Below, in pieces: positions 38,205 through 55,713 of a stretch of 64,000 nucleotides of DNA; positions within the stretch are counted from its first letter, which is position 1, and each line of letters starts with the position of its first letter. The translations under genes were made by a program, and so were the position numbers. The notes under the pieces were generated by a model. It saw only the letters and a program-made list of their open reading frames with translations, searched no databases and was not told where the DNA came from. The DNA comes from a virus. The stretch covers positions 17,273 to 81,272 of the IMG/VR virus record IMGVR_UViG_3300021963_005223. One strand, written 5' to 3'.

Positions 38205-39377
38205 ATGGCGACACTCGTTTTAAGACAAACTAAGGGACTACCCCTTACCAACGCTGAAGTTGATGGGAACTTTACCAACTTAAATGATGAGTTGGCGACC
38301 AAACTTCCTTCCACCTCATACACTGCAGCTGACGTTTTAACAAAAATTAAGACTGTAGATGGAACAGGTTCTGGTTTAGACGCAGACCTTTTAGATGGTC
38401 TAAGCACTAGTTCAACCTTACCAGGAATTGTGGATAAAAGTTCTGTTGTGACTCGAGACACATCTGGTAATACTGCCCTAAACCAATTATCGCTTACTGG
38501 TGCATTATCTGGTACAACTGCTACATTTAGTGGTGGTGTTTCAGTTGGCTCAATCACTATAGCAGGTGGATCCATTCCAGTTTCTGCTGGTGGTACAGGA
38601 GCTACAACTGCTCAGAATGCAAGAATAAATTTAGGTTTGGTTTTAGATACAGACGTTCAAGCGTATAATTCAAATTTACAAGCATTATCTGCTGCTTCAC
38701 CAGCAGCAGATAGATTACCATATTATACTGGTGCTTCCACTGCAGCTTTAGCAACTTTCACTTCTTTCGGAAGAACTTTAGTTGCTTCTACTGACGTTTT
38801 TGCTGCAAGAACTAATCTTGGTTTAGTTTTGGGTACTGACGTACAACCTTTCTCAGCTGAACTTTCTTCTGTAGCTGGTTTGTCGACTACTGGTATAATT
38901 ATCAGAACTGGTGCTGGAACCAAAGCAACAAGAACTATTACAGGAACAGCTGGAGAAGTTGTTGTAAGTAATGGTGATGGTGTAGCTGGAAACCCAACAT
39001 TAAGTCTTGGTACAGGTATTGCAAAATTATCTGCAAATAACACCTTCGCTGGAACTAACACTTTCCAAGTAATTTATGCAACTGAAGTTAATACAACCTC
39101 AGACGAAAGACTGAAAGAGAACATCCAAACGCTAAATAATGCTGTGGATATTGTTAATAGTTTGCGTGGCGTAGCCTATATTAAGGGTGGCAAAGCAGAA
39201 CTTGGTTTGATAGCTCAAGAAGTTGAACAGGTTATCCCTCAAGTTGTTGGGACAGATATGTCTGGTTATAAAACCATCGCCTATGGAAATATGGTTAGTA
39301 TATTGGTCGAAGCTATCAAAGAACAACAAAAAACAATTAGAGAATTAACTACTCGTTTAGAGAAACTGGAGAAATAA
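38205..39377 (+). CDS. Tail fibre with C-terminal intramolecular chaperone (peptidase S74)
   Basis: [55 protein letters not shown]. Confidence 0.85.
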   Translation: MATLVLRQTKGLPLTNAEVDGNFTNLNDELATKLPSTSYTAADVLTKIKTVDGTGSGLDADLLDGLSTSSTLPGIVDKSSVVTRDTSGNTALNQLSLTGALSGTTATFSGGVSVGSITIAGGSIPVSAGGTGATTAQNARINLGLVLDTDVQAYNSNLQALSAASPAADRLPYYTGASTAALATFTSFGRTLVASTDVFAARTNLGLVLGTDVQPFSAELSSVAGLSTTGIIIRTGAGTKATRTITGTAGEVVVSNGDGVAGNPTLSLGTGIAKLSANNTFAGTNTFQVIYATEVNTTSDERLKENIQTLNNAVDIVNSLRGVAYIKGGKAELGLIAQEVEQVIPQVVGTDMSGYKTIAYGNMVSILVEAIKEQQKTIRELTTRLEKLEK

Positions 39378-39378
39378 T

Positions 39379-39759
39379 ATGGCAATTCATGCAGCAACTG
39401 GATTTAAAAGATCTGATGGAACAGATGTAGTAAACCTGTTCTGGAACTACTATGATGCAGGTAACAGAAACTATACTGAAGGTAATGGTAACTGCGGATG
39501 GAACTGTGCATGTAATAACTGTAATTCCAACTGTAACTGTAACTGCGGTAACTGCGACGCTGGAGATATTTCTATTAACGTAGCTACTACCGATAGACGT
39601 ATTAACATGTTCCGCAACACTGCTTATGCAGACGGTATCCGTCACGACAATCAAGATAACACTTTAGGTGGTTTCCAATGGTTCCGCACAAACTGTAACT
39701 GTAACTGTGCATGTAACTGTAATTGCGCTTGCGACTGTGCTTGTGCTTGTGCATGTTAA
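39379..39759 (+). CDS. Cys/Asn-rich protein (19 Cys); candidate radical-SAM substrate or fibre tip
   Basis: Two xC repeat tracts (8 and 11 Cys); GGAG SD; starts 1 nt after the fibre stop. Confidence 0.8.
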   Translation: MAIHAATGFKRSDGTDVVNLFWNYYDAGNRNYTEGNGNCGWNCACNNCNSNCNCNCGNCDAGDISINVATTDRRINMFRNTAYADGIRHDNQDNTLGGFQWFRTNCNCNCACNCNCACDCACACAC

Positions 39760-39773
39760 TGGAGACAGAATAA

Positions 39774-40703
39774 ATGTTTAAAATTATTAAAACTCAAATT
39801 ACAGCATCTTTAAAAGAAGGTTCTGAGATTGGTATAAATGCCAATTATAGAACAACAATGGGCTATAATTCTGAAGACAAAACAATTTCAGTAAAAGTAG
39901 AAAAATTAAACAGACCAGATTTGACTCGTGAAGAAAATTTGGAAGTAACATACACAGAAGTAGCTTCTAGAATATTTGGTTTAGAAGATTTTCCACAAAA
40001 TACTGATAACATAACTTGGTTCACTGAGTATGATGTTGAAGCAAATAAAATTTCAGATCCGATTGAGATTTGGGATTGGGTTGCTACATTACAACAAAAG
40101 ACTCCTCCTGCTCCAAATGTTCCATATACTATCGGTTCTTTACAAACAGACTTCGCAGCTCACTTTACGCCAAAAATACTTCCATTATTTCATTTAGGTT
40201 CTTTCAATAAATCAGTTGAAAATTTTGAAGGTTCATTGTTACAATTTTACGTAACAAATGCAGACCAAACTACATTGGCTCCACATGATACAATTTTAAC
40301 AGATCCAAATCTAGAAGTTAAAACTTCATTAGAAAAATCTCAGTGGAGTAGTATCAATATTTTACCTATGCTTTCATACAATTTACTAGACGCTAATGGA
40401 GATGTAGTTGAAGTTGAACAGACTAAGATGGTAACACCTCGTCACCAAAAAGTAACTTTACCTAAAGCTGATGAATATTCTGTTAGAATTAACTTCACTA
40501 AACCTGCATTTAAAAATATTTCCAATACATATAATGTTTCAGTGGTTAATGGCGGAATTAATAAAAATAGGATTGTAATTTCAGAAGGATCTTCTGTTGT
40601 TCTAGTTAATGCACGTGGACTAAATTCTGGAGACTTCGTTAAAGTTAAGCTAAATATTGGAAAGTATAATAGTTTCGGTGAATTCTGGATTAATATTCAG
40701 TAA
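39774..40703 (+). CDS. Hypothetical 309-aa protein of the radical SAM island
   Basis: GGAG SD; beta-rich C-terminus; no recognised family. Confidence 0.75.
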   Translation: MFKIIKTQITASLKEGSEIGINANYRTTMGYNSEDKTISVKVEKLNRPDLTREENLEVTYTEVASRIFGLEDFPQNTDNITWFTEYDVEANKISDPIEIWDWVATLQQKTPPAPNVPYTIGSLQTDFAAHFTPKILPLFHLGSFNKSVENFEGSLLQFYVTNADQTTLAPHDTILTDPNLEVKTSLEKSQWSSINILPMLSYNLLDANGDVVEVEQTKMVTPRHQKVTLPKADEYSVRINFTKPAFKNISNTYNVSVVNGGINKNRIVISEGSSVVLVNARGLNSGDFVKVKLNIGKYNSFGEFWINIQ

Positions 40704-40773
40704 ATTTGAACTAATAATTTTGAAATAAATACTCGATATCTTGTCGAGTATTTTAAATAATTTAAAGGTGAAT

Positions 40774-42249
40774 ATGAGTAAATATAGATTAATTCTACAG
40801 GGTTCTAATGATGTAAAAGAAGTTTTGGTTTATGATCCAATAACTTCTGAAATGGTTTGGGAAGAATCTGGGGAAAGACCATCCTTGCAGCATTTGGGTC
40901 AAGATATCGAATATAAAGTTACAGCATCAAAACAGTGGAAACCATTTAAGGTTACCAATCCACACGACCCAGATCTGCATGGTCGTAAATCCAAAAAGCC
41001 AACAACATTAAAAATTACCATGGGTCTTAAGTGCAATTTTAAGTGCACTTATTGTAACCAAGCTCATCAGCCACACGATCCAGTTGGTGGTCCAGAAGAT
41101 GCGGATGATTTAATCCAAAAAATCAAAACAAACTTTGAACTTGGAACTTATGACCCAGTAAGAATCGAATACTGGGGTGGAGAACCATTTGTTTATTGGA
41201 AAACTTTAAAACCACTATCTGAGAAATTGCGTAAAGTGTATCCAAAAGCACAGTTTACTATTGTTACCAATGGTTCTATGTTAGATCGAGAAAAAGTCGA
41301 CTGGCTAAACCAGATGGGATTCTCAGTAGGTATGTCTCATGATGGTCCATTGCATGCTCAAAATCGTGGACCAGATCCATTGGATGATCCAAAGATGCGT
41401 TTCGGTATCGCTTACGCATTAAAAACTATGGGTCAAATGCGTTTTTCTTTTAACGCAGTTTTAACAAGAGAAAATGTTTCTTTAGCTGCAGTAAGAAACT
41501 TTATTCTTGATAAAATTAACCAAAGACATCCAGATTACCCTGATCAACCTGGTATTGATCAGCGAGAAATTCATGTTACCACTGAAGAATTGCTGTTACC
41601 GTATGACGATGATGGAATGAAACATTCATTGGTTACTCCAGATGAAAAGAAGATGATTCTTCATAACCTTTTCTGGGAAACAATTAATCAAAGAAATGAG
41701 TTTAGTTGGACTGTGCATAGTAAAATTAAAAACTTTTTTGACAGTTTGATTAATCAAAGACCTGCTGAGGCTCTTGGTCAAAAATGCGGTATGGATAGAG
41801 AAGACAATATTGCGATTGACATGAAAGGTAATGTAACCACTTGCCAAAATACTTCTTCTTTGACTAAACACCATATTGGTAACATTGAAGATTTTGATAA
41901 TATTCGTTTAACTACTTCATACCACTGGAGTACTAGAAGTGAGTGTCCAAGTTGCCCAGTAGTTCAATTATGTCAAGGTGCTTGTTTATTCTTAGAAGAC
42001 AAGTATTGGGAACAAGCGTGTGAAAACTTGTTCTATTATAACTTGGCGATGCTGGCTTCTTCTCTGTTTATACTTACAGGAGGTCTTGTACTAGTAGAAG
42101 TACAAGGAGAAAAGATAAGAAACGAAGGAATCACTTCGATACCAGTTATTGATATTAATTTTGTCAAATCTGATGGTAAAGAAACTTCCTGGAAAGTTCG
42201 TAAACCAATCGGTATTCCAGTTGTAACAGTTCCAGTTGGCTTGCAGTAA
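40774..42249 (+). CDS. Radical SAM / SPASM-domain enzyme
   Basis: CNFKCTYC (CxxxCxxC), WGGEP, TNG, SHDG; C...GNVTTC and CPSCPVVQLCQGAC...C auxiliary-cluster motifs. Confidence 0.93.
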   Translation: MSKYRLILQGSNDVKEVLVYDPITSEMVWEESGERPSLQHLGQDIEYKVTASKQWKPFKVTNPHDPDLHGRKSKKPTTLKITMGLKCNFKCTYCNQAHQPHDPVGGPEDADDLIQKIKTNFELGTYDPVRIEYWGGEPFVYWKTLKPLSEKLRKVYPKAQFTIVTNGSMLDREKVDWLNQMGFSVGMSHDGPLHAQNRGPDPLDDPKMRFGIAYALKTMGQMRFSFNAVLTRENVSLAAVRNFILDKINQRHPDYPDQPGIDQREIHVTTEELLLPYDDDGMKHSLVTPDEKKMILHNLFWETINQRNEFSWTVHSKIKNFFDSLINQRPAEALGQKCGMDREDNIAIDMKGNVTTCQNTSSLTKHHIGNIEDFDNIRLTTSYHWSTRSECPSCPVVQLCQGACLFLEDKYWEQACENLFYYNLAMLASSLFILTGGLVLVEVQGEKIRNEGITSIPVIDINFVKSDGKETSWKVRKPIGIPVVTVPVGLQ

Positions 42250-42250
42250 T

Positions 42251-42589
42251 ATGTCTTTTTTGAAGTGCAAAATCTGGCTGGTTGAGCAATATCCAAGATA
42301 TGGGTCTAATTATAATTTGTTCCCAATATCTGATATTATAGATTATGATTCTGATAATACATTTTATGACTATAAAGAAGATAAATCCCAGCATTTTATA
42401 AATATGATGGTTCCAGAATTTGAAATTTATGCAACAGAAGAACAGATTGAAATTTTAAATAAATATACTGAAGAGATTATCAGTAAAAAGATTCCGATAC
42501 TTAGAAATGTGCAAAAGGGTGATGTGGAGTATTGGATGATAGATACTACATTTTTAGACTATCATCTTAAAACAAAAAATATCCAATAG
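42251..42589 (+). CDS. Hypothetical protein
   Basis: ATG 1 nt after the rSAM stop. Confidence 0.6.
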   Translation: MSFLKCKIWLVEQYPRYGSNYNLFPISDIIDYDSDNTFYDYKEDKSQHFINMMVPEFEIYATEEQIEILNKYTEEIISKKIPILRNVQKGDVEYWMIDTTFLDYHLKTKNIQ

Positions 42590-42598
42590 GAGAAAAAA

Positions 42599-43546
42599 AT
42601 GAATGCAAAACATGTTAAATGGGTCATTGCACATGAACCTATCGGCTTGTTTCTTAAAGTAGCGGATCGTTTCGCTACAGAAGTAAACGAGAAGACTGGT
42701 GGAATGTTCAATATTGAAGTTTTATCATTGTCAGATTATTCTGCAAAATATAACGATGGCAAAAAGATCACTAAAAATGAGTTAATGACTTTAGTTGATT
42801 CTGGTGCTATTGAAATGAGCCACATCTATACTACTTGGTTAGCTGATTATAATAAAGATCTACATGCTTTAGATCTACCTTTCTTATTCCGTGACCACGA
42901 TCACGCTGATGCAGTTCTAGAAGGTGAAATTGGTACTGAGTTGTTAGCTGGTGTATCTAAGAATTCTAATATTCACGCTATGTCTTTCACTTACTCTGGT
43001 GGTTATCGTGTTGTTCCAGCTAACTTCCGTGCTGATACTGTAGAAGCATGGAGAGGTCAAGCTGTTCGCACTTCACGTTCTCCAGTAGCTGTTGAGACAT
43101 TTAAGTTACTAGGTGCTGAGCCAAAAGAGCACATCGCTCTAGAAGAAATGAATGAATATGCAGATAAAGGTGAAATTGCTGCTGGTGAATCAACTTACGT
43201 TCGCATTTTCCCACTAGATCAGTATAAATCTTTTAAAGTTGTTAATGACACTGCTCATAGCTTGTTCTTAACTTCTATTATTGTTAACAAAGACTTTATG
43301 GCTCAGTTTGACGAAGAAACTCGAGAGATTCTAGCTACTGCTGCATTTAATGCTGCTCGTGTAGAGCGTCGTGAATCTGTAGCTGACATTCCTAACATCT
43401 TGGCTGAATGTCAAGAAAAAGGTGTTGAAGTTGTTCGTATGTCTACTGAAGAACAGAAGAAGTTCCAAGAAGTTACTTCTGCTGTTTATGAAAAGTTTGC
43501 AGACTATTTCACTCCAGGATTAGTGCAGAAAATTAAGTTACAATAA
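42599..43546 (+). CDS. DctP-like TRAP substrate-binding protein lacking a signal peptide
   Basis: FATEVNEKTGG, GAIEMS, LDLPFLFRDHDHADAVLEGEIG, GQAVRT, FKLLGAEP. Confidence 0.85.
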   Translation: MNAKHVKWVIAHEPIGLFLKVADRFATEVNEKTGGMFNIEVLSLSDYSAKYNDGKKITKNELMTLVDSGAIEMSHIYTTWLADYNKDLHALDLPFLFRDHDHADAVLEGEIGTELLAGVSKNSNIHAMSFTYSGGYRVVPANFRADTVEAWRGQAVRTSRSPVAVETFKLLGAEPKEHIALEEMNEYADKGEIAAGESTYVRIFPLDQYKSFKVVNDTAHSLFLTSIIVNKDFMAQFDEETREILATAAFNAARVERRESVADIPNILAECQEKGVEVVRMSTEEQKKFQEVTSAVYEKFADYFTPGLVQKIKLQ

Positions 43547-43563
43547 GCGTTTTGACAAATGAT

Positions 43564-43581
43564 GGGGAGCTTCGGCTCCCC
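43564..43581. terminator. UUCG hairpin (terminator or mRNA stabiliser)
   Basis: GGGGAGC-TTCG-GCTCCCC; same core as the hairpin after gp32 but no strong U tract. Confidence 0.55.
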
Positions 43582-43612
43582 AAAATAATTATTCCTTTTA
43601 ATCAATTTTACA

Positions 43613-44665
43613 ATGACTATGAATAAAGAATGTTTATATTATAATTGCTATAATGTTCCAGAAGTAATACAAGCTGGAGATAAAAGTATTGAACCTTATC
43701 TATCACCAGATTATTCAGATAAAGTTTTCCAGTTTTATAGAAAATATAAAATGGATTTGACTAATGTAGTATGTGATAGAATGGATATCCTTCCACATTA
43801 TATTAACATAAAAAAGAATCAATTTCCACTACCAAAAATTGAGCCAGATTTTAATATGTCTTTTGCTGAGTGCGTTGAAAAACGAGCAAAAGAAATTTTG
43901 GCACTCAATAAACCAATAACGGTAGTTTGGAGCGGTGGTATTGATAGTACACTTGTAATATTTTCACTGCTTCAATTTTGCAATGACCCATCACAAATTA
44001 CTGTTTATGGAACTTATAACTCTATTGTAGAGTCTGGTGATGTATTTGAAAAATATATCCTGCCAAGGGGTGTCAAATATCAGTTTGCAGTATCATCTAG
44101 AAAATACTTTAAAGATGATACACAAATCTATATCTCTGGTTTTATGGGTAATCAATTATTTGGACCAGTTGATGATTTTTCATATTCAAAAGCTACATTG
44201 TTTCATCACCATCTTAGAGGTAATGGTGATATTGAAGATTCTTACGAAACTGTGTTGACTGAAGAGATGCACGAGTTTTTATTACCTGCACTTAAAGCCA
44301 GTCCAAAGAAAATAGAAACTGTTAGAGATTTACGCTGGTTTGGTATTTTTATGTTAGATTGGCACCAGTCATATTATGATATTTTAATCAAAACAAAAAA
44401 TTATGATAAAGTTTATCATTTTTTTGATGATGCTGATATGCAAAAATATTCTATGACAACAAAAGAGCCATACACAAAAGTAAAGGGAAACCCTCTGACC
44501 CATCGCTGGGTCATGAGGGAATTAATTGAAGAGTGGGGGAAGTGCTCTCACTATGCTTGGAACAAACCAAAGAGTATATCAAACTTGGCCAATAGAGCTG
44601 CTGACTGGTATTTTATAATGCCAGATCATAGTTTGATTACTCCAAACAATATTAAATTTAATTAG
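43613..44665 (+). CDS. Asparagine-synthetase-like N-type ATP pyrophosphatase (no glutaminase domain)
   Basis: WSGGIDS PP-loop; SGFMGNQLFG resembles the AsnB SGxGxDELFG motif. Confidence 0.7.
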   Translation: MTMNKECLYYNCYNVPEVIQAGDKSIEPYLSPDYSDKVFQFYRKYKMDLTNVVCDRMDILPHYINIKKNQFPLPKIEPDFNMSFAECVEKRAKEILALNKPITVVWSGGIDSTLVIFSLLQFCNDPSQITVYGTYNSIVESGDVFEKYILPRGVKYQFAVSSRKYFKDDTQIYISGFMGNQLFGPVDDFSYSKATLFHHHLRGNGDIEDSYETVLTEEMHEFLLPALKASPKKIETVRDLRWFGIFMLDWHQSYYDILIKTKNYDKVYHFFDDADMQKYSMTTKEPYTKVKGNPLTHRWVMRELIEEWGKCSHYAWNKPKSISNLANRAADWYFIMPDHSLITPNNIKFN

Positions 44666-45291
44666 TAATTAACAAACCCAACATAAACATTTAAGAATAC
44701 TTGTGCTTGGTCTGATAAATTAGTTTCAACGTAGCGTTGCAAATATCCTGGAGTGACAACAATTTCACCAACACGAGCACGAATTCCATAGTTTGTTGCA
44801 ACTAAACCATTAGAAACCAGTTGGCGAATTGTTTGGACTCCACCTCTTGTATCAGCGAAATATGTGTTTGGTGGGAACTGTCCTGTATGCAAAACGAATG
44901 TTAAAATTAGAGGAACGTGTTCATAGCAATGTAATGGTACATGCTCTTGTGGCTGTTGGAAAAATACGCTAGAACCAAGGATCTCGGGCAATCTCTTTAG
45001 ATCTTGATTTTCTTTATCTTCAAATTCTTCTAATTGCTTGCAAGTACTATATACGAACCCTCTAAATTTTTCTACTAGTGGGTTGTCAATACCCATAATA
45101 TTTACATTCCCAGTTTCATTATTATGCTGGTTGTAAATAGCTAAAAATTCATTGAGTTCTTCTTCATTTAAATTAAAAGAAAAACAGCGCAAAGGTGTTG
45201 GGAAAAGTGATTTTTCGAATGTTTTTGTCACTTCAATAGAAGTTTCTTGACTTGTAGAAACTTCAGTCTGGGGTTGTTGATTTTCTTGCAT
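44662..45291 (-). CDS. Degenerate 2OG-Fe(II) oxygenase-like protein (TIGR02466-like)
   Basis: LFPTP, FADTR, GEIVVTPGYLQRYVETN skeleton; GGAG SD; TATAAATA upstream. Confidence 0.6.
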   Translation of the reverse strand: MQENQQPQTEVSTSQETSIEVTKTFEKSLFPTPLRCFSFNLNEEELNEFLAIYNQHNNETGNVNIMGIDNPLVEKFRGFVYSTCKQLEEFEDKENQDLKRLPEILGSSVFFQQPQEHVPLHCYEHVPLILTFVLHTGQFPPNTYFADTRGGVQTIRQLVSNGLVATNYGIRARVGEIVVTPGYLQRYVETNLSDQAQVFLNVYVGFVNY

Positions 45292-45334
45292 TTTATCTCC
45301 ATAAGTTAATTAAATTTCAGCTTTCGCTCAAAGG

Positions 45335-45381
45335 TATTTATACACCCGTCTTGTATTTAGCGTTTTCAAATAGAATAAATA
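45335..45381. promoter_or_regulatory. Divergent late promoters
   Basis: TATAAATA on - at 45335-45342, CTAAATA on - at 45354-45360, ATAAATA on + at 45375-45381. Confidence 0.65.
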
Positions 45382-45407
45382 AACATGTATATTGGGAGAA
45401 AAATTAA

Positions 45408-45743
45408 GTGGCTACAGTTACAAACTTATACGTAGATCAGGGTTCGTTTTACAGAACTCACGTCACAGTTGCTAATTCCGATGGGAATGCTCTGGACTTA
45501 ACTGGTTTTACTGTTGCTTCTCAGATGAGAAAGTCATATCAGTCTTCGACTGGATTTAACTTCACAACTTCTATAAGTAATCCGACTCAAGGTAGGGTTA
45601 GACTTGAACTAACTTCTGAACAATCAAGAGTCATCCCTGCAGGTAAATATCTTTATGATGTTGAAATTCTATCTCCAACAGGGGAGAGAACTAGAGTCGT
45701 TGAAGGTATAGTTTTAATAAACCCAGAAATCACGAAGATCTAA
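45408..45743 (+). CDS. Conserved virion structural protein
   Basis: NLYVDQGS, DLTGFT..SQMRKSY, GKYLYDVEI, RVVEG; GTG start with GGGAG SD. Confidence 0.78.
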   Translation: MATVTNLYVDQGSFYRTHVTVANSDGNALDLTGFTVASQMRKSYQSSTGFNFTTSISNPTQGRVRLELTSEQSRVIPAGKYLYDVEILSPTGERTRVVEGIVLINPEITKI

Positions 45744-45744
45744 A

Positions 45745-45975
45745 ATGGCAGATATTATCGCTACAGTAGACGATCCGTATGGATCATCATTAGACTCTGG
45801 AACAACAGTTACAGCATCATCTACATCGGTACCACCAAATACAATCGAAAATATGTTAGATGTAGATTTGCAGACGTTGACTGATGGGGCATTACTAATT
45901 TACAAAAATACCACCTCCAAATGGACTGCTTCCACGATGTTGGATAAGCAGAACATGGAAGGTGGAGAATTTTAA
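45745..45975 (+). CDS. Small fibre-associated protein
   Basis: DVD...DGALLIY...KW repeat unit; ends EGGEF. Confidence 0.7.
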   Translation: MADIIATVDDPYGSSLDSGTTVTASSTSVPPNTIENMLDVDLQTLTDGALLIYKNTTSKWTASTMLDKQNMEGGEF

Positions 45976-45990
45976 TCGGAGACATAAAAG

Positions 45991-48927
45991 ATGGCATCTA
46001 TAATCAGAATTAAACGCTCGTCTACAAACGGAAATCCAGCAACGCTGGGTGCTGGTGAACTAGCATACTCTGCCTTAGCAGGAACAGTATCGAATGGTGG
46101 TGATCGCCTATACATAGGTATGGGTACAGAAACCTCAGGTAATGCTGCGAACCACGTAATTATCGGTGGTAAGTATTTTACCGATATGATGGATCATACT
46201 CCAGGAACTTTAACTGCAAGTTCTGCACTTATTACTGATTCCAGCAATAAAATTGATGTAATTAACGTAGGAAATTTAACTCTTACTGGTAGTACAAATA
46301 CTATTAGTTCCACTGATACTAATGGTAATATTTTATTAGACCCAGCTGGCACTGGCTATGTTCAGGTCGTTGGTACTAATGGTTTTATCCTTCCTGTTGG
46401 TACGACTGCTCAAGCAGGTCCAGCAATCCAAGGTACTGTTCGTTACAATACTGATAAATCTTCTTTCGAAGGTTACAACGGAACTAACTGGGGTTCACTT
46501 GGTGGTGTTAAATCTGTTGATGGTTTAACATATATTATCGCTGAAACTTCTCCAGGTGCTTCTGACGATACATTAAGATTCTACGCAAGTAATAACGTCA
46601 CTGCTGTTCAAGTAGCTACATTAGATCAAACTAAATTAGCAGTTCTACAAACTACTGCTTCAACTAGCACTACTACTGGTGCGTTGACCGTAGCTGGTGG
46701 CGTTGGTATCGCAGGTAATTTATATGTTGGTGGCAACCTTAGCATCGCAGGTACTGATTTAAATATCGGTAGCGTACAATTCAATAATGGTTTAACATTA
46801 TCTGGATCTACAACTGCTGCAACTGAATACTTCACAATTACCGATGGCGCAGCAACTCCAGTAACAAAATTCCAAGTAGATACTTCAAGTGGTAATACCA
46901 CTATCGCTGGAACATTGAGTGTTACTGGTGCTACAACTATTACTGGCGCAGCTACTCTAAGTTCTACTCTTGGTGTTACTGGTGCTACAACATTAAGTTC
47001 TACTCTTGGTGTTACTGGCGACCTTTCTGTAAACACTAATAAGTTTACTGTTGCTTCTGCGACTGGTAATACTTCTGTTGCTGGAACATTGGGTGTTACT
47101 GGTGCTACAACATTAAGTTCTACTCTTGGTGTTACTGGAGCAACTACTCTAAGTTCTACTCTTGGTGTTACTGGTGCTACAACTCTATCGAGCACATTAG
47201 ATGTAACTGGCAACTTAAACGTAAACACTAACAAATTCAGTGTTATCGCATCATCTGGTAATACTTCTATTGCTGGTACTTTAGGTGTAACAGGTAATAC
47301 AACTCTATCTGGTACTCTTGGTGTAACTGGTGCTACTACTCTTTCTTCTACAGCTAACGTAGTTGGAGATTTCTCAGTTGCTACCAACAAGTTTACTGTT
47401 GCAGCTTTAACAGGTAATACAGCTGTAGCTGGCACTTTAGGTGTTACTGGCGATACAACTTTAACAGGCGACTTGGCAGTTAATGGTGGTGATATTACTA
47501 CCACCGCTACAACATTTAACTTAATTAATACTACTGCGACTACTTTAAATATTGGTGGCGCAGCGACTTCTCTAACACTTGGTGCTACAAGTGGTACTGC
47601 TACTATCCGCAATACTACTGTTGCGATTACCAATAATGCTACAGTTGGTGGCACTTTAGGTGTAACAGGTAATACTACTCTATCAGGTACTCTTGGCGTA
47701 ACTGGTGCTGCAACGATTACTGGTATTATTAATGCCAACGGAGGTATTACTGCAACTGGTTCTGTTAGTGTAACTGCTGGTGGAACAAATACAAATATTA
47801 ACCTTGTCCCACAAGGTACTGGTACTGTTGACGTTGCAAGTAAGCGTATTACCAACGTTGCTGAACCAACTCAAGCTACAGACGCTGCAACTAAGAACTA
47901 TGTTGATGCTGTTAAGACTGGTTTAGATCCAAAGGATTCAGTTCGTGTCGCTACAACTGCTGCATTAACTGTTACTTACTCTAACGGATCTTCTGGTGTC
48001 GGAGCAACATTAACCAATGCTGGAACACAAGCTGCAATAACTATCGACTCTATTGTACTAGCAGTCGGAGATCGTGTCTTAGTTAAGAACCAAGCAACTG
48101 CTTCCCAGAATGGTATCTATACTGTAACCAACGTTGGTTCAGCTTCTACAAACTGGGTATTAACTCGTTCTATTGACGCTGAAACATCAACAGAACTTAC
48201 TGGTGGTGCATTTACTTTCGTTGAAGAAGGTACTACTAATGGTGATAATGGTTTCGTTTGTACTACAGACGGAGCAGTTACAATTGGTACTACATCAATT
48301 AACTGGGTACAGTTCTCTGGTGCTGGTCAAATTATTGCTGGTGCTGGTTTAACTAAGACTGGTAACCAAATTGACGTTGTAGGTACTGCAAACCGAATTG
48401 ATGCTAACGCAGATAATATTGACATTTCTGCAAACTATGTTGGTCAAGCGTCTATTACAACTCTGGGTACTATTAGTACTGGTACTTGGCAGGGTACTAT
48501 TGTTGCTGGTCAATATGGTGGTACTGGTGTAAACAACTCAGGTAAGACAATTACTCTTGGTGGTAACTTAACTACTAGTGGTGCGTTTAACACTACTCTT
48601 ACTGCAACTGGCACAACTTCTGTCACTCTTCCAACTTCTGGAACTCTTGCGACATTAGCTGGTACTGAAACATTTACCAACAAGACTTTAACATCACCAA
48701 CAATCAACTCTGGTGCTATTTCTGGAACATTCACTGGAAATGCAACATTGTCAGGTGTAATCACTTTATCAAACACAACTGATGCAACCAGCACTACTGC
48801 TGCTGGAGTTGTTATGTCTGGTGGCTTGGCAGTTGCTAAAGCAGTATATGTTGGTACAAACATTACTGGTGCGGGTGCTTCAACTTCGACTCTTGATGGA
48901 TTTAACATCGATGGTGGAACTTACTAA
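45991..48927 (+). CDS. Tail fibre protein (Thr/Gly-rich, 978 aa)
   Basis: IIRIKRS...GELAYS head, GVTGATTLSSTL repeats, DRVLVKNQ..QNGIY, ends IDGGTY. Confidence 0.85.
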   Translation: MASIIRIKRSSTNGNPATLGAGELAYSALAGTVSNGGDRLYIGMGTETSGNAANHVIIGGKYFTDMMDHTPGTLTASSALITDSSNKIDVINVGNLTLTGSTNTISSTDTNGNILLDPAGTGYVQVVGTNGFILPVGTTAQAGPAIQGTVRYNTDKSSFEGYNGTNWGSLGGVKSVDGLTYIIAETSPGASDDTLRFYASNNVTAVQVATLDQTKLAVLQTTASTSTTTGALTVAGGVGIAGNLYVGGNLSIAGTDLNIGSVQFNNGLTLSGSTTAATEYFTITDGAATPVTKFQVDTSSGNTTIAGTLSVTGATTITGAATLSSTLGVTGATTLSSTLGVTGDLSVNTNKFTVASATGNTSVAGTLGVTGATTLSSTLGVTGATTLSSTLGVTGATTLSSTLDVTGNLNVNTNKFSVIASSGNTSIAGTLGVTGNTTLSGTLGVTGATTLSSTANVVGDFSVATNKFTVAALTGNTAVAGTLGVTGDTTLTGDLAVNGGDITTTATTFNLINTTATTLNIGGAATSLTLGATSGTATIRNTTVAITNNATVGGTLGVTGNTTLSGTLGVTGAATITGIINANGGITATGSVSVTAGGTNTNINLVPQGTGTVDVASKRITNVAEPTQATDAATKNYVDAVKTGLDPKDSVRVATTAALTVTYSNGSSGVGATLTNAGTQAAITIDSIVLAVGDRVLVKNQATASQNGIYTVTNVGSASTNWVLTRSIDAETSTELTGGAFTFVEEGTTNGDNGFVCTTDGAVTIGTTSINWVQFSGAGQIIAGAGLTKTGNQIDVVGTANRIDANADNIDISANYVGQASITTLGTISTGTWQGTIVAGQYGGTGVNNSGKTITLGGNLTTSGAFNTTLTATGTTSVTLPTSGTLATLAGTETFTNKTLTSPTINSGAISGTFTGNATLSGVITLSNTTDATSTTAAGVVMSGGLAVAKAVYVGTNITGAGASTSTLDGFNIDGGTY
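46912..47350 (+). repeat. 36-bp coding tandem repeats (GVTGATTLSSTL)
   Basis: Repeated ggtgttactggtgctacaacattaagttctactctt units; boundaries approximate. Confidence 0.85.
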
Positions 48928-48938
48928 ATAGTATCATA

Positions 48939-48970
48939 AGGGTAGTTGTTACTACCCTATTACCTTTTTT
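48939..48970 (+). terminator. Hairpin, possible terminator after the first long fibre gene
   Basis: AGGGTAGT-tgtt-ACTACCCT then attacc and a T run; CTAAATA at 48924-48930. Confidence 0.5.
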
Positions 48971-48980
48971 AAGGATTTGA

Positions 48981-50954
48981 ATGGCTAATAAAGTCTTACT
49001 GAAGAAGTCTTCAGTTGCGGCAAAAATTCCGCTATCAACTGATTTGGATTACGGTGAATTGGCATTAAACTATGCTGATGGTAAACTGTATTTCAAAAAT
49101 TCGTCAAATGCAATTCAATCCTTCACAAACGACTCTTCGCTCGTTACCTTAACTGGTACACAAACCCTCACCAACAAAACCCTCACATCACCAACTTTAA
49201 CTGGTGGTACGATCAACAACACCATAATTGGTGGTTCAACTCCAGCTGCAGGTTCTTTCACCACTTTAACAGCGAGTAGTACAATAACTGCTTCTGGAAT
49301 TGTTAGTGGTTCAGAATTAACTTCAACTCTGGCAAGTGGTGACGAGGGTGGACAGATAAATTTAGCAAAGCCACCAAACGCCACGATAGCTGCTGGAGTC
49401 ACGATTGATGTATGGCAAAATAGATTAAGATTTTTTGTACAAGGTGGTGATGCTCGTGGCGCATATATTGACTTATCAGCTGCAAGTGCAGGTGTAGGCA
49501 CTAATCTTATATCAACATCTGGCGGTGGTACATTAACTTCGATTACTGCTGGTACTGGTTTAACTGGTGGAACAATTACAACTTCTGGTACTATCGCAAT
49601 CGATACTTCCGTTGTTGCGACATTAACTGGTACTCAGACATTAACCAATAAGACTCACGATAATACTAATAGTTATGTCACTAAATCGTCGTTGTTTACA
49701 CTTCAAGACGCAACTGATACAACTAAACAAGCAGTATTTTCTTTGTCTGGTATTACAACTGCCACAACTAGAACATATACTCTTCCAAATGCAAGCACTA
49801 CATTAATTGGTGCAGCTGGTGGAACTTTTAGTGGTGGTGTAACTTTTTCTAGCGCAACGAATTATTTTGGTAACTCTACTGCTACAGGAACAACAGAACT
49901 TGCTAGTGGAGCAACAGTTTCGGCTTCTACTAAAACAGTTAATATTGGTACTGGTGGTCTTACTGGTTCAACAACTACAATGGCTATCGGTTCCACATTT
50001 GGAACTACTGTAACAGCAAATGGAACTTGGACATATTCAACTCCACTAGCAAACTCAAACTTAGCAAATTCTGCAATAACTATTAATGGTACTTCCATCA
50101 GTTTAGGTAGTTCTGGATCAATTACTACTACTGCTATTACTGAAGGAACGAACCTTTACTATACTAATGCAAGAGCAAGAGCAGCTCAATCAGCTGGTAC
50201 TGGTATTTCTTATAATAGTACTACTGGTGTTATTAGCACTGTTCAAGATATTGCGACAACTGCTTCACCAACATTCGCTGGATTATCAACTACTGGAACT
50301 TTAACAGTTGGTGGCGATTTAGTTGTTAACGGAACAACTACTACTGTTAACTCTACTACAATAACAGTTGACGATAAAAATATTGAGTTGGGATCTGTAG
50401 CTACCCCAACAGATATTACTGCCAATGGTGGTGGTATTACATTAAAAGGTAGCACTGACAAGACCTTTAACTGGGTTTCTTCTACTGCATCTTGGACTTC
50501 TTCAGAGAATTTAGATTTAGCATCTGGTAAAACATTTAAAATTAATGGTTCAGATGTATTGACATCTAGTCAAGTATTGGGTAAAACTCTACCTTCTGGA
50601 ACTGTTGTTGGTACTACAGATTCACAGACGCTTACAAATAAAACACTAACAAGCCCAACGATAAATAATGCTACAGTAAATAATTTAATAATCACTGGAA
50701 CTTTAACAGCAGGTGGTGGAGTAGGAACTGCTGGACAAATTCTTCAGTCTACTGGAACTGGTGTTGAGTGGACGAGCGCAGCTGGCTCTGATCCAGCTGA
50801 TATAATGTATTTTAATATATTAAGTAGAGTTGGTGAAGTACAAGCAAAGCTAACTTCGCTTTTGCAGAATTATTTAGATTTCGACAATCAAACATTTAGA
50901 ACTCCAGTTGGATTTGTTGACACGAGAACACAAACTATTAATGTAACAGGATAA
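48981..50954 (+). CDS. Tail fibre protein (657 aa)
   Basis: LKKSSV...GELALNYADGKLYFK head; TQTLTNKTL repeats. Confidence 0.82.
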   Translation: MANKVLLKKSSVAAKIPLSTDLDYGELALNYADGKLYFKNSSNAIQSFTNDSSLVTLTGTQTLTNKTLTSPTLTGGTINNTIIGGSTPAAGSFTTLTASSTITASGIVSGSELTSTLASGDEGGQINLAKPPNATIAAGVTIDVWQNRLRFFVQGGDARGAYIDLSAASAGVGTNLISTSGGGTLTSITAGTGLTGGTITTSGTIAIDTSVVATLTGTQTLTNKTHDNTNSYVTKSSLFTLQDATDTTKQAVFSLSGITTATTRTYTLPNASTTLIGAAGGTFSGGVTFSSATNYFGNSTATGTTELASGATVSASTKTVNIGTGGLTGSTTTMAIGSTFGTTVTANGTWTYSTPLANSNLANSAITINGTSISLGSSGSITTTAITEGTNLYYTNARARAAQSAGTGISYNSTTGVISTVQDIATTASPTFAGLSTTGTLTVGGDLVVNGTTTTVNSTTITVDDKNIELGSVATPTDITANGGGITLKGSTDKTFNWVSSTASWTSSENLDLASGKTFKINGSDVLTSSQVLGKTLPSGTVVGTTDSQTLTNKTLTSPTINNATVNNLIITGTLTAGGGVGTAGQILQSTGTGVEWTSAAGSDPADIMYFNILSRVGEVQAKLTSLLQNYLDFDNQTFRTPVGFVDTRTQTINVTG

Positions 50955-50957
50955 ACC

Positions 50958-52949
50958 ATGGCAAATAGAATTCCTTTAATTATCGATTCAACATCGAAAC
51001 GAATAAAAGAATTACCTTCTGGAGATAACTTAGATCTTACAGGAAATGGTATTTCTGCAGTTCGTGATATTATTCCAGAAACAGATGTAACATATAACTT
51101 AGGTTCTGCAACTAAGAGATGGAACTCTCTTTATGTTTCTGGAAACACAATTTTTGTTGGTACTGCGAGCATCTCAGTTAACGCAAGCAACATTCAAATT
51201 GGTATCGGTGCGAATACTGCAACTATTCCTGTAGCTTCTTCCCAAACTTTTGCCACTTTAAGTGGGTCAGAAACATTAACAAACAAGACAATCAATTTAG
51301 CAAATAATACACTAACTGCAACTAGTGCACAAATTCTTGCTGCTGTTTCTGACGAAACTGGTTCTGGTGTTTTGGTATTTAATACTAGCCCTACTCTTGT
51401 AACTCCAATTCTTGGAACTCCGCAGTCTGTTACATTGACAAACGCTACTGGCTTACCAGTTTCAACTGGTATCTCTGGTTTAGGTACTGGCGTCGCTACT
51501 TTTTTAGCTACACCATCTTCTGCAAATTTAGCTGCAGCATTAACTGATGAAACTGGTTCTGGCTCTGTAGTATTCAGCGCATCGCCAACATTTACTGGTA
51601 CTGCAAATTTTGCAGCGATTGGAACAACTGGGAATGCAACAGTTGGTGGTAACTTAACAGTTACTGGTGATTTCATTGTCAATGGAACTACAACTACTGT
51701 TAACTCTACTACAATAACAGTTGATGATATTAATATCGAATTAGGTTCTGTAGCTACACCAACTGATATTACAGCCAATGGTGGTGGTATTACTCTTAAG
51801 GGTACTACAGATAAGACTATCAGTTGGTCTTCAATCGGTTGGACTTCTTCTGAAGATTTTAACCTTGCTACGGGTAAATCGTTTGAAATTAATGGAACTT
51901 CTGTTTTATCATCCACAACATTAGGTTCTGGTGTTATTAATTCTTCGTTAACATCGGTTGGTACTATTGCTACTGGTACTTGGCAAGGTACTATCGTTAG
52001 TCCAACTTATGGTGGCACTGGTGTTAACAACGGAACTAAGACTATCACTCTTGGTGGTAACTTAACAACTTCTGGTGCATTTAATACTACATTAACTGCA
52101 ACAGCCAATACTACAGTAACACTACCAACTACTGGAACTCTTTCTACTTTAGCTGGTACAGAAACACTAACAAATAAAACAATCGCTGCTGGTTCAAATA
52201 CTATTAGCGGATTAACCAACGCAAACCTTTCTGGTTCTGCTGGTATCACTAATGCAAACTTAGCGAATAGTTCTATTACTGTTGGCAATACTGCTATTTC
52301 TCTGGGTGCTTCAAGTACTACACTTGCTGGTTTAACTTCTGTTACATCAACATCTTTTGTTGGTGCTTTAACTGGTAATGCTTCTACTGCAACAACTCTT
52401 GCAACAGCAAGAGCAATCAATGGCGTAAACTTTGATGGTAGTGCTGCAATTACAATCACTGCCAATACCACTAACGGATTAACAATTGGTACTGGTCTTT
52501 CTGGAACTTCATTCAATGGTTCTTCAGCTGTCACTATAGCAATCGATTCTACTGTTGCTACTTTAACTGGTACTCAAACTCTTACCAACAAATCATTGGG
52601 TGGATTTGATCAAAAGACTGGTTCTACTAGCATCGCCAATAATGCAGTTGCTCAAGCATCAGTTGCAACAATTACTCAGACTGCAGTCGATACATTCGCA
52701 GCAGCGACTTATCGTTCAGCTAAGTATGTTATTCAAATTACACAAGGATCAAATTACCAAGTTGAAGAAATTCTAGTTATACATAACGGAACAACCACTA
52801 CATTAACCAATTATGCTGTTATGAACACCAATGGCATTCTAGGAACTTTTGCAACAGATATTAGTGCAGGTAATGTGCGTTTATTGGTAACAATGAATTC
52901 TGCAACAGCTGCAACAATAAATATAACAAGAACGACAATAGTTGTATAA
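50958..52949 (+). CDS. Tail fibre protein (663 aa)
   Basis: YNLGSATKRW, DETGSG repeats, C-terminal YRSAKYVIQ domain. Confidence 0.82.
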   Translation: MANRIPLIIDSTSKRIKELPSGDNLDLTGNGISAVRDIIPETDVTYNLGSATKRWNSLYVSGNTIFVGTASISVNASNIQIGIGANTATIPVASSQTFATLSGSETLTNKTINLANNTLTATSAQILAAVSDETGSGVLVFNTSPTLVTPILGTPQSVTLTNATGLPVSTGISGLGTGVATFLATPSSANLAAALTDETGSGSVVFSASPTFTGTANFAAIGTTGNATVGGNLTVTGDFIVNGTTTTVNSTTITVDDINIELGSVATPTDITANGGGITLKGTTDKTISWSSIGWTSSEDFNLATGKSFEINGTSVLSSTTLGSGVINSSLTSVGTIATGTWQGTIVSPTYGGTGVNNGTKTITLGGNLTTSGAFNTTLTATANTTVTLPTTGTLSTLAGTETLTNKTIAAGSNTISGLTNANLSGSAGITNANLANSSITVGNTAISLGASSTTLAGLTSVTSTSFVGALTGNASTATTLATARAINGVNFDGSAAITITANTTNGLTIGTGLSGTSFNGSSAVTIAIDSTVATLTGTQTLTNKSLGGFDQKTGSTSIANNAVAQASVATITQTAVDTFAAATYRSAKYVIQITQGSNYQVEEILVIHNGTTTTLTNYAVMNTNGILGTFATDISAGNVRLLVTMNSATAATINITRTTIVV

Positions 52950-52980
52950 TTTCAAATTAACTCGTGGATAGGGAAACGGG

Positions 52981-55705: not shown

Positions 55706-55713
55706 TATAAATA
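55706..55713 (+). promoter_or_regulatory. Exact T4 late promoter TATAAATA
   Basis: Intergenic, directly before the oxygenase gene. Confidence 0.7.

Follow-up and report, generated by a model that had tools for sequence, protein, structure and literature searches.

Several radical SAM/SPASM enzymes that act on Cys-containing substrates provide the closest comparisons for a gene run in the tail-fibre region of the window, the whole 64,000-nt stretch of viral DNA analysed here. The sactipeptide thioether synthase CteB, which acts on CteA (PDB 5WHY, 5WGG), is the best match to the window enzyme. Its N-terminal domain, radical SAM core and SPASM domain align to the predicted model with an rmsd of 4.3, and a Cys-containing ribosomal substrate is encoded nearby in both systems. 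However, the two enzymes share only 16–18% identity, and in the window model the N-terminal domain has none of the helices expected of a winged-helix recognition element. In addition, CteA is a short leader-core peptide, whereas the presumed substrate of the window enzyme, an (Asn-Cys)n run, sits at the C-terminus of a virion fibre protein.

For action on proteins instead of peptides, the nearest experimental precedent is CrpC of Methanococcus voltae, a radical SAM/SPASM enzyme with three [4Fe-4S] clusters that forms ranthionine thioethers on CrpA, a Cys-rich protein of the same gene cluster (Dieter et al. 2026, PMC13692751). This archaeal system is cellular, phages are not mentioned in that paper, and the CrpA motifs (CAGM, CAVD and CPLV) differ from the window run. 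With 52.7 bits against a cut-off of 525, the window enzyme falls outside TIGR04463. As the same paper summarises, QhpD, another radical SAM/SPASM enzyme, forms Cys-to-Asp/Glu side-chain thioethers in QhpC, the small subunit of quinohemoprotein amine dehydrogenase (PMC13692751). The acceptors are chemically close to Asn and the substrate is a protein, but QhpC carries three defined crosslinks instead of a periodic run and serves in a redox enzyme, not in a virion; the window enzyme scored 47.8 bits against the TIGR03906 cut-off of 453. The SPASM enzyme anSME (PDB 4K36-4K39) also acts on a Cys of a protein substrate and aligns over ~323 residues (Z 20.0). It has no N-terminal domain, its family TIGR03942 gave 61.6 bits against a cut-off of 349, its C-x-P/A-x-R motif does not occur in the tails found here, and no sulfatase is present.

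Self-cleaving C-terminal phage-fibre chaperone domains of the Peptidase_S74 and Hint types offer a further likeness. The window fibre has an S74 domain. In phage JWF and at several metagenomic loci, a Hint-like domain of ~160–210 aa comes after the run, and its removal would make the run the new C-terminus. These domains account only for the exposure of the run, not for the run itself or the radical SAM enzyme.

Organization of the locus

The features of the locus are as follows.

38205..39377, + strand: tail fibre of 390 aa, no Cys, C-terminal Peptidase_S74 (domain and PHROG matches)
39379..39759, + strand: 126-aa Cys/Asn-repeat tip protein with 19 Cys, presumed substrate (sequence, relatives)
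39484..39558, + strand: internal Cys/Asn tract, approximately residues 36–60, 8 Cys (sequence, relatives)
39691..39756, + strand: C-terminal run of 11 xC units (NCNCNCAC...), last Cys at the stop codon (sequence, relatives)
39774..40703, + strand: 309-aa all-beta partner protein, no Cys (comparison across loci)
40741..42249, + strand: radical SAM/SPASM enzyme, CteB-like architecture with N-terminal domain (profiles, alignment, model)
42236..42589, + strand: 117-aa protein, function unassigned, accessory trio gene 1 (comparison across loci)
42599..43546, + strand: DctP-family solute-binding protein, accessory trio gene 2 (family match E 5e-40)
43563..43582, no strand: G+C-rich hairpin, 8-bp stem and 4-nt loop, directly 3' of the DctP gene
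43613..44665, + strand: 350-aa PP-loop (SGGIDS) ATP-pyrophosphatase-like protein, accessory trio gene 3
44662..45291, − strand: 209-aa protein with the oxygenase fold of PF13759/phrog_81 (phrog_81 E 1e-6)
45335..45342, − strand: exact TATAAATA, 44 nt upstream of the 209-aa gene, possible T4-type late promoter

The genes from the fibre to the PP-loop protein are tightly packed on the + strand, the 209-aa gene is convergent, and virion genes of this T4-like phage lie on either side, as the first-pass annotation had described for the gene run and its flanks. The late-promoter motifs that it reported fared less well: exact TATAAATA occurs three times in the 64 kb against a chance expectation of 7.7 and is not enriched in the window, although two of the three copies are sensibly placed, at 45335 (−) before the 209-aa gene and at 42397 (+) before the DctP gene.

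The S74 fibre and the Cys/Asn-repeat protein noted at first pass were both confirmed. The fibre matched many PHROG tail-fibre families and carries Peptidase_S74 at residues 299–348 (E 3.7e-13). The start codon of the 126-aa gene lies 1 nt past the fibre stop codon. In the encoded protein, a conserved N-terminus without Cys is accompanied by two Cys tracts, of which the internal one is kept in most but not all close relatives. The C-terminal run, with a strict xC period over 22 residues, is the family-defining feature. Among 11 relatives, the tail codons of the run showed 270 synonymous versus 54 nonsynonymous pairwise differences, which indicates purifying selection on the run as protein. Asn conservation is 90% or more at x positions 1–3; since the later ones tolerate Ala and Asp, no single acceptor residue is defined. 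A related fibre (L087), 54% identical to the window fibre over the N-terminal 267 aa, has an NC run as its own end, in place of the S74 domain and separate 126-aa gene of the window, a case of fusion or fission.

Linkage of the radical SAM gene and the xC run

A survey with the radical SAM profile found 79 viral loci, and those with upstream DNA were judged. Nearly every such locus has a same-strand ORF that ends in an (NC)n run or in a run followed by a Hint domain. On bacterial genome contigs, a run-bearing ORF was present at 50 of 58 radical SAM loci under a strict filter, and at six more when a longer Hint tail or a broken run was allowed. The reverse search started from DNA encoding NCNCNCxCxC alone, and C-terminal runs with at least 4.5 kb of downstream DNA were counted. 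The radical SAM gene (E<1e-20) was found downstream of 27 of the 28 runs, and the remaining one is followed by a radical SAM fragment. Hint-type runs were likewise accompanied by the enzyme (2/2), and internal runs of the NCNCNCxCxC type were not (0/10). The linkage is near-obligate in both directions, so that the neighbourhood analysis suggested earlier, of radical SAM homologues beside xC-repeat ORFs and fibres, turned out strongly positive either way.

The pairing is also present in cultured, unrelated phages, namely Achromobacter phage JWF (gp028, a run then Hint) and Ralstonia phage RSP15 (ORF048); the JWF radical SAM homologue was named anSME by its depositors. The run carriers match PHROG tail-fibre families and, in phages of the T4-like, Ackermann and lambda-like types, are genuine tail fibres. 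Hundreds of unrelated phages and prophages carry the pairing next to or within their tail-fibre genes.

The radical SAM/SPASM enzyme

The CxxxCxxC motif of the enzyme is formed by C98, C102 and C105, and seven SPASM Cys residues extend from C349 to C427; both sets are invariant in an alignment of 40 sequences. About 88 residues precede the radical SAM core, and translation probably begins at the ATG at 40774, the codon of the invariant residue M12. These data confirm the full SPASM Cys set and the N-terminal extension noted at first pass. The family is sharply delimited and mainly phage-borne (561 clusters at E≤1e-30), and spans more than 570 viral and more than 227 bacterial stretches.

The predicted structure (pLDDT 91) matched CteB best, with a VIA Z of 23.8 over 355 residues including the N-terminal domain, as compared with ~20 for ChlB and anSME. 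Foldseek gave E 2e-14 for CteB and 1e-12 for anSME. CteB and TigE align over the N-terminal domain but anSME does not, and the radical SAM epimerase EpeE/YydG also matches the enzyme. The N-terminal domain is modelled with three strands and without the helices of the canonical RiPP recognition element. Judged by its model, the enzyme stands closest to the thioether synthase CteB, and its chemistry would probably be of that kind. Because it fell far under the cut-offs of all the curated NCBIfam equivalogs (PapB, anSME, CrpC-type, QhpD and SCIFF), its reaction could be a different one. Thioether-forming relatives share just 15–21% identity with it.

Partner and accessory proteins

The 309-aa gene is the fastest-evolving of the run, and its product matched no family in domain, PHROG and profile searches. 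It belongs to a phage-only family always encoded between the xC-tailed gene and the radical SAM gene, and its fold is the same as in phage proteins of 252–315 aa (TM up to 0.71); the cluster 2/13 partner family was joined by hhalign with a probability of 88%. The oxygenase family was linked across loci by hhalign (95.6–99.6%) and has a 3-His motif, H-x-H...H. The convergent oxygenase-like gene belongs to the conserved part of the cassette, but the window copy reads H121-x-Y123...R186 and has lost two of the three metal-binding His residues. Since the gene is also absent altogether from some loci, the role of the protein is uncertain.

The conserved core consists of the xC-tailed fibre protein, the all-beta partner, the oxygenase-fold protein (or a second radical SAM enzyme) and the radical SAM enzyme. 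The 7-kb run is not one obligatory system, and the 117-aa, DctP and PP-loop genes are accessory. This trio is limited to T4-like phages and is also found without the radical SAM gene, there beside phage IscU/IscA genes for Fe-S assembly. For this reason, a lactam-forming tailoring role of the AsnB-like enzyme is not favoured. The PP-loop protein, from a large unnamed viral family, does have the SGGIDS motif, but its similarity to AsnB and LarE is weak. The DctP assignment holds; a hydrophobic leader is not visible in the sequence, and neither DctQ nor DctM is encoded in the 81-kb record.

Proposed maturation of the fibre tip

Since the pairing of run and radical SAM enzyme recurs at the fibre genes of hundreds of phages and prophages, these phages very probably modify the host-binding fibre tip, most likely by cross-linking, with chemistry known from peptide antibiotics. 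We found no paper describing a fibre-tip radical SAM/xC-run system. The evidence favours a fibre or tip protein over a free peptide as the substrate, and the system is probably one of virion-protein maturation, not a classical RiPP system. This fits the earlier proposal that RiPP-style chemistry matures part of the virion, probably its receptor-binding tip; the other proposal, that a modified peptide is produced late in infection, is unlikely. There is a strong likelihood that the enzyme acts on the run of the tip protein. The complete reading of the cassette as a phage-encoded maturation system for the tail-fibre tip is, on balance, probable, and the chances of a thioether crosslink as the product, which we infer by analogy, are somewhat better than even.

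In this scheme, the 126-aa protein would be made late in infection along with the fibre, and its equivalent in other phages would be the fibre's own C-terminal end. The dedicated enzyme encoded two genes downstream would take the (Asn-Cys)n run as its substrate, probably together with the internal Cys tract. The CteB-like enzyme would cleave SAM and take a hydrogen atom from the run, and the Cys sulfur would most likely be joined to a carbon of a neighbouring Asn, Asp or Ala. Such thioether crosslinks, within one chain or between the three fibre chains, would leave a rigid tip without reactive thiols, in a virion whose other proteins are almost Cys-free. The 309-aa protein may be a tip adhesin or an assembly or presentation factor, the oxygenase-fold protein is a second conserved partner with metal binding probably lost in the window lineage, and the T4-like trio possibly supports the Fe-S enzyme rather than tailoring the peptide. 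A ring closed between immediate neighbours in the chain would be unusually small, so that no definite geometry can be assigned to any crosslinks.

The enzyme might modify the run without a crosslink, by formylglycine formation as in anSME, epimerisation or another reaction that gives a reactive or protease-resistant tip. We consider this unlikely, although anSME is nearly as close as CteB in both structural comparisons (Foldseek E 1e-12 versus 2e-14; VIA Z 20.0 versus 23.8), its NCBIfam match covers the whole core (residues 93–415), a folded protein is what it acts on, EpeE/YydG matches too, and the depositors' name for the JWF gene is anSME. Against it stand the low anSME equivalog score, the absence of C/S-x-P/A-x-R from the tails inspected, and the N-terminal domain aligned by CteB and TigE; dense Cys beside Asn or Asp is the pattern of thioether systems (QhpC, CrpA and NxxC peptides; in part from PMC13692751). 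It is less likely again that the run is a structural metal or Fe-S site at the trimeric fibre axis, with the enzyme serving another purpose or assisting assembly. The T4 gp37 needle has analogous His-x-His iron sites, the strict xC period would put all thiols on one beta-strand face, and the trio lies beside IscU/IscA in loci without the radical SAM gene. However, metal binding does not explain the near-obligate two-way link to one peptide-modifying type of radical SAM enzyme, thiolate ligation does not require the conserved Asn of x positions 1–3, and a free thiolate-metal site would be labile on a virion exposed to oxic water outside the cell.

At most loci the run lies at the end of a 200–730-aa protein with true tail-fibre domains, the cassette is always within tail modules, no protease or exporter is co-conserved, and the forms with Hint or S74 suggest self-processing of the kind known from fibres. 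It is thus very unlikely that cleavage frees the Cys-rich C-terminus as a bioactive peptide, with the fibre-like part as leader, even though the enzymes belong to a family of RiPP maturases, the window substrate is just 126 aa, and small tandem precursor-like ORFs occur (three of 92–115 aa in L094, two in L334). Tail-fibre regions are mosaic hot spots that do gather morons, and DctP and the PP-loop gene are variable content. Hitch-hiking of the radical SAM gene as a moron of unrelated role, already strongly disfavoured, is nevertheless highly implausible, because its pairing with the run persists in tail modules of the myo-, Ackermann- and sipho-types, which differ in gene order, and holds in both search directions at ~95% or more.

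Gene organization around the Cys-rich protein

The IMG/VR record from which the window is taken belongs to a T4-like myovirus (81 kb, ~45% complete) and encodes a baseplate hub, wedge proteins, a sheath and a large terminase. A tightly packed series of genes is bordered by the gene for a structural protein of 2049 aa on one side and by more fibre genes on the other. The first-pass annotation had described fibre, Cys-rich, radical SAM, DctP, PP-loop and convergent oxygenase-like genes at this place, and all of them were found:

38205-39377, + strand: 390-aa tail fibre whose C-terminus is a Peptidase_S74 chaperone domain (S74 fibre)
39379-39759, + strand: 126-aa protein with 19 Cys, beginning one nucleotide after the stop of the fibre and ending in an (Asn-Cys)n / xC tract (hereafter the run)
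39774-40703, + strand: 309-aa protein, no family assigned
40741-42249, + strand: radical SAM/SPASM enzyme (rSAM)
42236-42589, + strand: 117-aa protein
42599-43546, + strand: DctP-family protein
43613-44665, + strand: PP-loop protein with an SGGIDS motif
44662-45291, - strand: 209-aa protein, convergent, with a weak 2OG-oxygenase match

Peptidase_S74 (PF13884) matched residues 299-348 of the 390-aa fibre with 50 bits (cut-off 22). The 126-aa protein with its 19 Cys stands out because the neighbouring virion and fibre proteins (window 38205-55563), including those of 657-978 aa, contain 0-1 Cys each. No match to the 7-kb region was detected among cultured phages by nucleotide search, nor to the 126-aa protein by tblastn.

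Late-promoter motifs had also been proposed to flank these genes. It was revealed that TATAAATA is no commoner in the window than expected by chance and that sigma-70-like sites are not over-represented either, and the proposed enrichment was therefore rejected. An exact TATAAATA is present at 55706, near an oxygenase-like gene (55717-56298) that follows an 860-aa fibre (52981-55563). The C-terminus of this fibre closely resembles the end of the S74 fibre (…EAIKEQQK…), and the two genes may form a second pair of fibre and modifying enzyme.

The run and the radical SAM enzyme are linked in both directions

Homologues of rSAM with 35-41% identity were detected by tblastn in two unrelated cultured phages, Ralstonia phage RSP15 of the Ackermannviridae and the siphovirus Achromobacter phage JWF, and in both phages the gene is located a short way downstream of a tail-fibre gene. 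JWF gp028 contains the run NCNCDCNCNCSC immediately before a Hint self-processing domain, and the C-terminus of RSP15 ORF048 is NCQCGN. A profile search of viral contigs with rSAM yielded more than 570 stretches. Among the best 79 of these, nearly all loci with upstream DNA contained a run-bearing ORF on the same strand 1-3 kb upstream, with (NC)n either at its end or followed by a Hint-like domain of ~160 aa. The family was also found in more than 227 stretches of bacterial genome contigs, mostly of Alpha- and Betaproteobacteria such as Limnohabitans and Ferrovibrio. Fifty of the 58 bacterial loci with enough upstream DNA passed a strict filter for an upstream run, and in six of the eight exceptions the run was followed by a longer Hint tail or was slightly interrupted.

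The reverse search scanned viral contigs for DNA encoding NCNCNCxCxC without using the enzyme as a criterion and gave 115 new loci. The encoded run was in frame and within 8 residues of the stop in 78 loci, preceded a Hint-like domain in 7, was internal in other proteins in 10, and was not in frame in 20. When at least 4.5 kb of downstream DNA was available, 27 of 28 C-terminal runs were followed by rSAM on the same strand (E<1e-20), and the 28th was followed by an rSAM fragment (E 1e-16). Both Hint-type runs with enough flanking DNA were accompanied by the rSAM family, and none of the ten internal runs had rSAM downstream. The median distance from run to rSAM was 1.2 kb. These two-way counts indicate that the pairing is near-obligatory whichever partner is used as the query, and bear out the linkage of rSAM to xC-repeat ORFs and fibres that had been put forward for checking. 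The association of one dedicated enzyme family with a simple C-terminal (Asn-Cys)n code on tail-fibre tips is almost obligatory, and it is spread over phages of the myo, sipho and Ackermann types and over many prophages of proteobacteria.

Proteins that carry the run

The run-bearing proteins range from ~90 to 730 aa, with matches to many PHROG tail-fibre families among the larger. Comparison of 123 distinct tails revealed 4-14 xC units per run. The first three x positions were Asn in at least 90%, a figure that is partly due to the search pattern NCNCNCxCxC and that also holds in the unbiased set derived from the enzyme. Asn, Ala and Asp occupied the later x positions, and Cys was the very last residue in half of the tails. 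Since the differences in tail codons among close relatives were mostly synonymous (270 synonymous versus 54 nonsynonymous), the run is selected as a protein sequence.

Three architectures lead to one result, which is a run at the mature C-terminus:

Architecture 1: run forming the extreme C-terminus of the protein
Architecture 2: run ahead of a self-cleaving Hint domain
Architecture 3: S74 fibre accompanied by a separately encoded run protein

The relation between the first and third of these is illustrated by L087, a T4-like relative recovered in our locus searches, whose fibre is 54% identical to that of the window over 267 residues. The L087 fibre ends in a run, whereas the window has at that point an S74 domain and then the separate 126-aa gene. 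This pattern of fusion and fission argues that the 126-aa protein would be a part of the fibre tip.

A Hint-type domain of 156-213 aa with a C-F/V-P-x-G-T motif was observed directly after the run in L002:5679-7130 (JWF gp028), L031, L042, L046, L240-L243 and L249; in these loci the Hint nucleophile would be supplied by the final Cys of the run. In L094:4573-5504 and L334:5929-6540, one rSAM is preceded by two or three small ORFs of 92-115 aa in tandem. Each of these ends in an NCNCNC run, and they look like multiple precursors.

A conserved cassette with a fast-evolving partner

All genes of the loci were clustered and the clusters were compared by profile. Four parts recurred: the run-bearing fibre protein, a protein that has no known family (245-414 aa), an oxygenase-fold protein (PF13759/phrog_81), and the rSAM/SPASM enzyme. 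The 309-aa protein of the window is a divergent member of the 245-414-aa family (hhalign probability 88%, C-terminal 62 residues). Pairwise BLAST showed no similarity of it to RSP15 ORF047/046 or JWF gp029, and its relation to cluster 2 was visible only by profile and by fold. The AlphaFold model (pLDDT 89) consists of beta structure throughout and has an Ig-like domain at its C-terminus. Seven phage proteins of 252-315 aa, all uncharacterised, have the same fold (TM up to 0.63/0.71), and the best of them is as long as RSP15 ORF047 and may be the same protein. Foldseek against the PDB gave no specific match (generic beta-sandwich, TM at most 0.26), and the ESM Atlas gave weak Ig-like leads only. 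In the wide VIA-align search, the C-terminal Ig-like domain alone was matched (Z at most 8.9), by many unrelated families including pilus chaperones, which indicates no function. Among relatives, the 309-aa protein is 24-32% identical, compared with 70-74% for rSAM and 64-78% for the run protein, and its gene thus evolves by far the fastest in the series. Such rapid evolution would be more in keeping with a protein that contacts the host or acts in assembly specifically at the tip than with an enzyme.

The PF13759/phrog_81 clusters are related to one another with hhalign probabilities of 95.6-99.6%, and the 209-aa protein of the window was assigned to this fold by hhalign (95.6%) and phrog_81 (E 1e-6). 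Cassette homologues in other phages keep an invariant P-H-x-H...H triad, as do the uncharacterised structures 3BVC and 2RG4. The lineage of the window departs from the H-x-H...H metal triad of PF13759, each of its 11 members having H-x-Y...R instead. The window's copy is therefore conserved yet probably not a metal enzyme. In L026:5981-6997, L033, L056, L057 and L064, a second rSAM of ~338 aa without a SPASM domain takes the place of the three-His oxygenase-fold gene and may be an oxygen-independent substitute. In L087:4878-10705, where the fibre itself carries the run, the oxygenase-fold gene is absent, and DctP is 64% identical to that of the window but rSAM only 38%; modular exchange of the rSAM cassette in an otherwise conserved backbone seems to have taken place.

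The radical SAM/SPASM enzyme forms a separate family

PF04055 assigned the enzyme to the radical SAM superfamily (41.5 bits, cut-off 29.5), and the CxxxCxxC motif at C98/C102/C105, which holds the [4Fe-4S] cluster that cleaves SAM, was invariant across 40 sequences. TIGR04085 detected the SPASM domain (37.1 bits, cut-off 27), whose seven-Cys motif serves two auxiliary [4Fe-4S] clusters. The full SPASM Cys set noted at first pass was confirmed, as all seven Cys (C349, C368, C402, C405, C411, C415, C427) were invariant in 40 homologues. The curated NCBIfam equivalogs scored far under their cut-offs: 69.1 versus 340 bits for the PapB-type ranthipeptide maturase (NF047865), 61.6 versus 349 for the anaerobic sulfatase maturase (TIGR03942), 52.7 versus 525 for CrpC-type (TIGR04463) and 47.8 versus 453 for QhpD (TIGR03906). 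The enzyme thus represents a separate family, which, with 561 clusters (50% identity) at E<=1e-30 among 1.84 billion representatives, is well delimited. The listed start is a TTG (40741), and homologues begin at the position of Met12 (ATG, 40774), which is probably the real start and would give a protein of 491 aa.

The solved structure closest to the AlphaFold model (pLDDT 91) was that of CteB, which makes the thioethers of a sactipeptide (Foldseek E 2e-14; VIA Z 23.8 over 355 residues), followed in VIA by ChlB (Z 20.6), anSME (20.0) and TigE (19.3). At the N-terminus of the model, residues 2-40 form one helix and three strands, and ordered coil follows to ~residue 88. This region is covered by the CteB alignment, which takes in the N-terminal domain of CteB, and by that of TigE; a RiPP recognition element consists of three strands and three helices. 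Prediction of rSAM in complex with the 126-aa protein, three 4Fe-4S clusters and SAM gave ipSAE values of 0.02 and 0.00, the fold of the partner being uncertain, and counts neither for nor against binding.

Possible chemistry on the run

Enzymes of this type are known to crosslink proteins rather than peptides, as in QhpD/QhpC and CrpC/CrpA (PMC13692751); the CrpC/CrpA paper makes no mention of phages (PMC13692751). Because of these precedents and the CteB-like structure, Cys-derived thioether crosslinks in the run would be the most likely product. The enzyme may instead convert Cys of the run to formylglycine, the anSME structure being among its matches; the sulfatase maturase model scores far below its cut-off, and the C/S-x-P/A-x-R substrate motif was absent from the inspected run tails. 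Epimerisation of residues by rSAM is another possible outcome, and the run, with its regularly spaced Cys, may also serve in metal binding.

The first-pass annotation had placed these genes among RiPP-like systems. The phage system works like RiPP or QhpD-type maturation and differs from a classical RiPP in its substrate. A classical RiPP, which has a short precursor with a removable leader and a released peptide as its product, was rejected since the carriers, of 90-730 aa, are mostly true tail fibres and thus structural proteins, and since neighbourhood clustering revealed no co-conserved protease, transporter or exporter family. If the run is crosslinked, this would be a new way of building a stable receptor-binding tip and would extend RiPP-type chemistry to large structural proteins. 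In a more specific form of the thioether reading, which we regard as rather unlikely, rSAM would staple the fibre tip either between its three chains or from the run to the adhesin-like 309-aa partner. This would make the receptor-binding tip a needle that is crosslinked by an enzyme and has no free thiols. It would be the first case in which a virus particle receives a post-translational modification from a radical SAM enzyme, and the crosslinking would be a new factor governing fibre stability or host range across hundreds of phage lineages.

Virion proteins are rarely modified enzymatically, and we know of no report of radical SAM chemistry on a virus particle. Full-text literature searches yielded no publication that connects radical SAM enzymes and Cys/Asn runs with phage fibres. 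The XYE system (PMC12114271) is unrelated, and a cyanophage rSAM maturase was merely listed as an 'antibiotic synthesis gene' (PMC12801897). The genes described here would represent a known enzyme chemistry with a new substrate class in a new biological setting. The run provides an annotation rule for fibre tips, and rSAM and the run make up a compact enzyme-tag pair for protein engineering. The system is directly testable in the cultured phages JWF and RSP15.

The 117-aa, DctP and PP-loop genes

Membership of the DctP family, the solute-binding proteins of TRAP transporters, was clear (PF03480, 138 bits versus 23.4; NF037995, 100.1 bits versus 50). Such proteins are exported and work with the membrane subunits DctQ and DctM. 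The sequence of the DctP homologue shows no hydrophobic leader at its N-terminus, and neither DctM nor DctQ is encoded in the 81-kb record, which is ~45% complete. The PP-loop protein, in which the SGGIDS motif is present, scored only 13.6 bits with TIGR01536 (asparagine synthetase B type, cut-off 267); a homologue scored 22.4 bits with PF00733 (cut-off 21), across 35 residues only. The PP-loop protein of the window had no match among PDB sequences or, by tblastn, among cultured phages.

In the first clustering, the 117-aa, DctP and PP-loop genes occurred in T4-like contexts only. The single PP-loop protein as a query recovered no related loci, which were found with an alignment of the PP-loop family. 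In this separate search, the DctP family was present in 51 of 54 loci, the 117-aa family in 53 and rSAM in 44. The trio adjoins or sometimes interleaves with the rSAM cassette in these 44 loci, so that the view of DctP and PP-loop genes as unrelated morons was softened. Since several loci have the three genes sandwiched between the genes for the partner and for rSAM, the association exceeds chance adjacency. In the ten rSAM-free loci, the trio stands beside a phage IscU (NifU_N, E 3e-54), an IscA-type protein (E 4e-16 in L339:4393-9729; same arrangement in L314 and L329, all from T4-like phages), a glutaredoxin and a DUF2061 protein. These Fe-S gene neighbours weakly favour a trio that supplies or maintains an Fe-S enzyme rather than one that tailors a peptide, and suggest that the trio forms with the IscU/IscA genes a phage module for Fe-S cluster supply. 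A G+C-rich hairpin with a 4-nt loop (window 43563-43582) is located directly 3' of the DctP gene, before the PP-loop gene.
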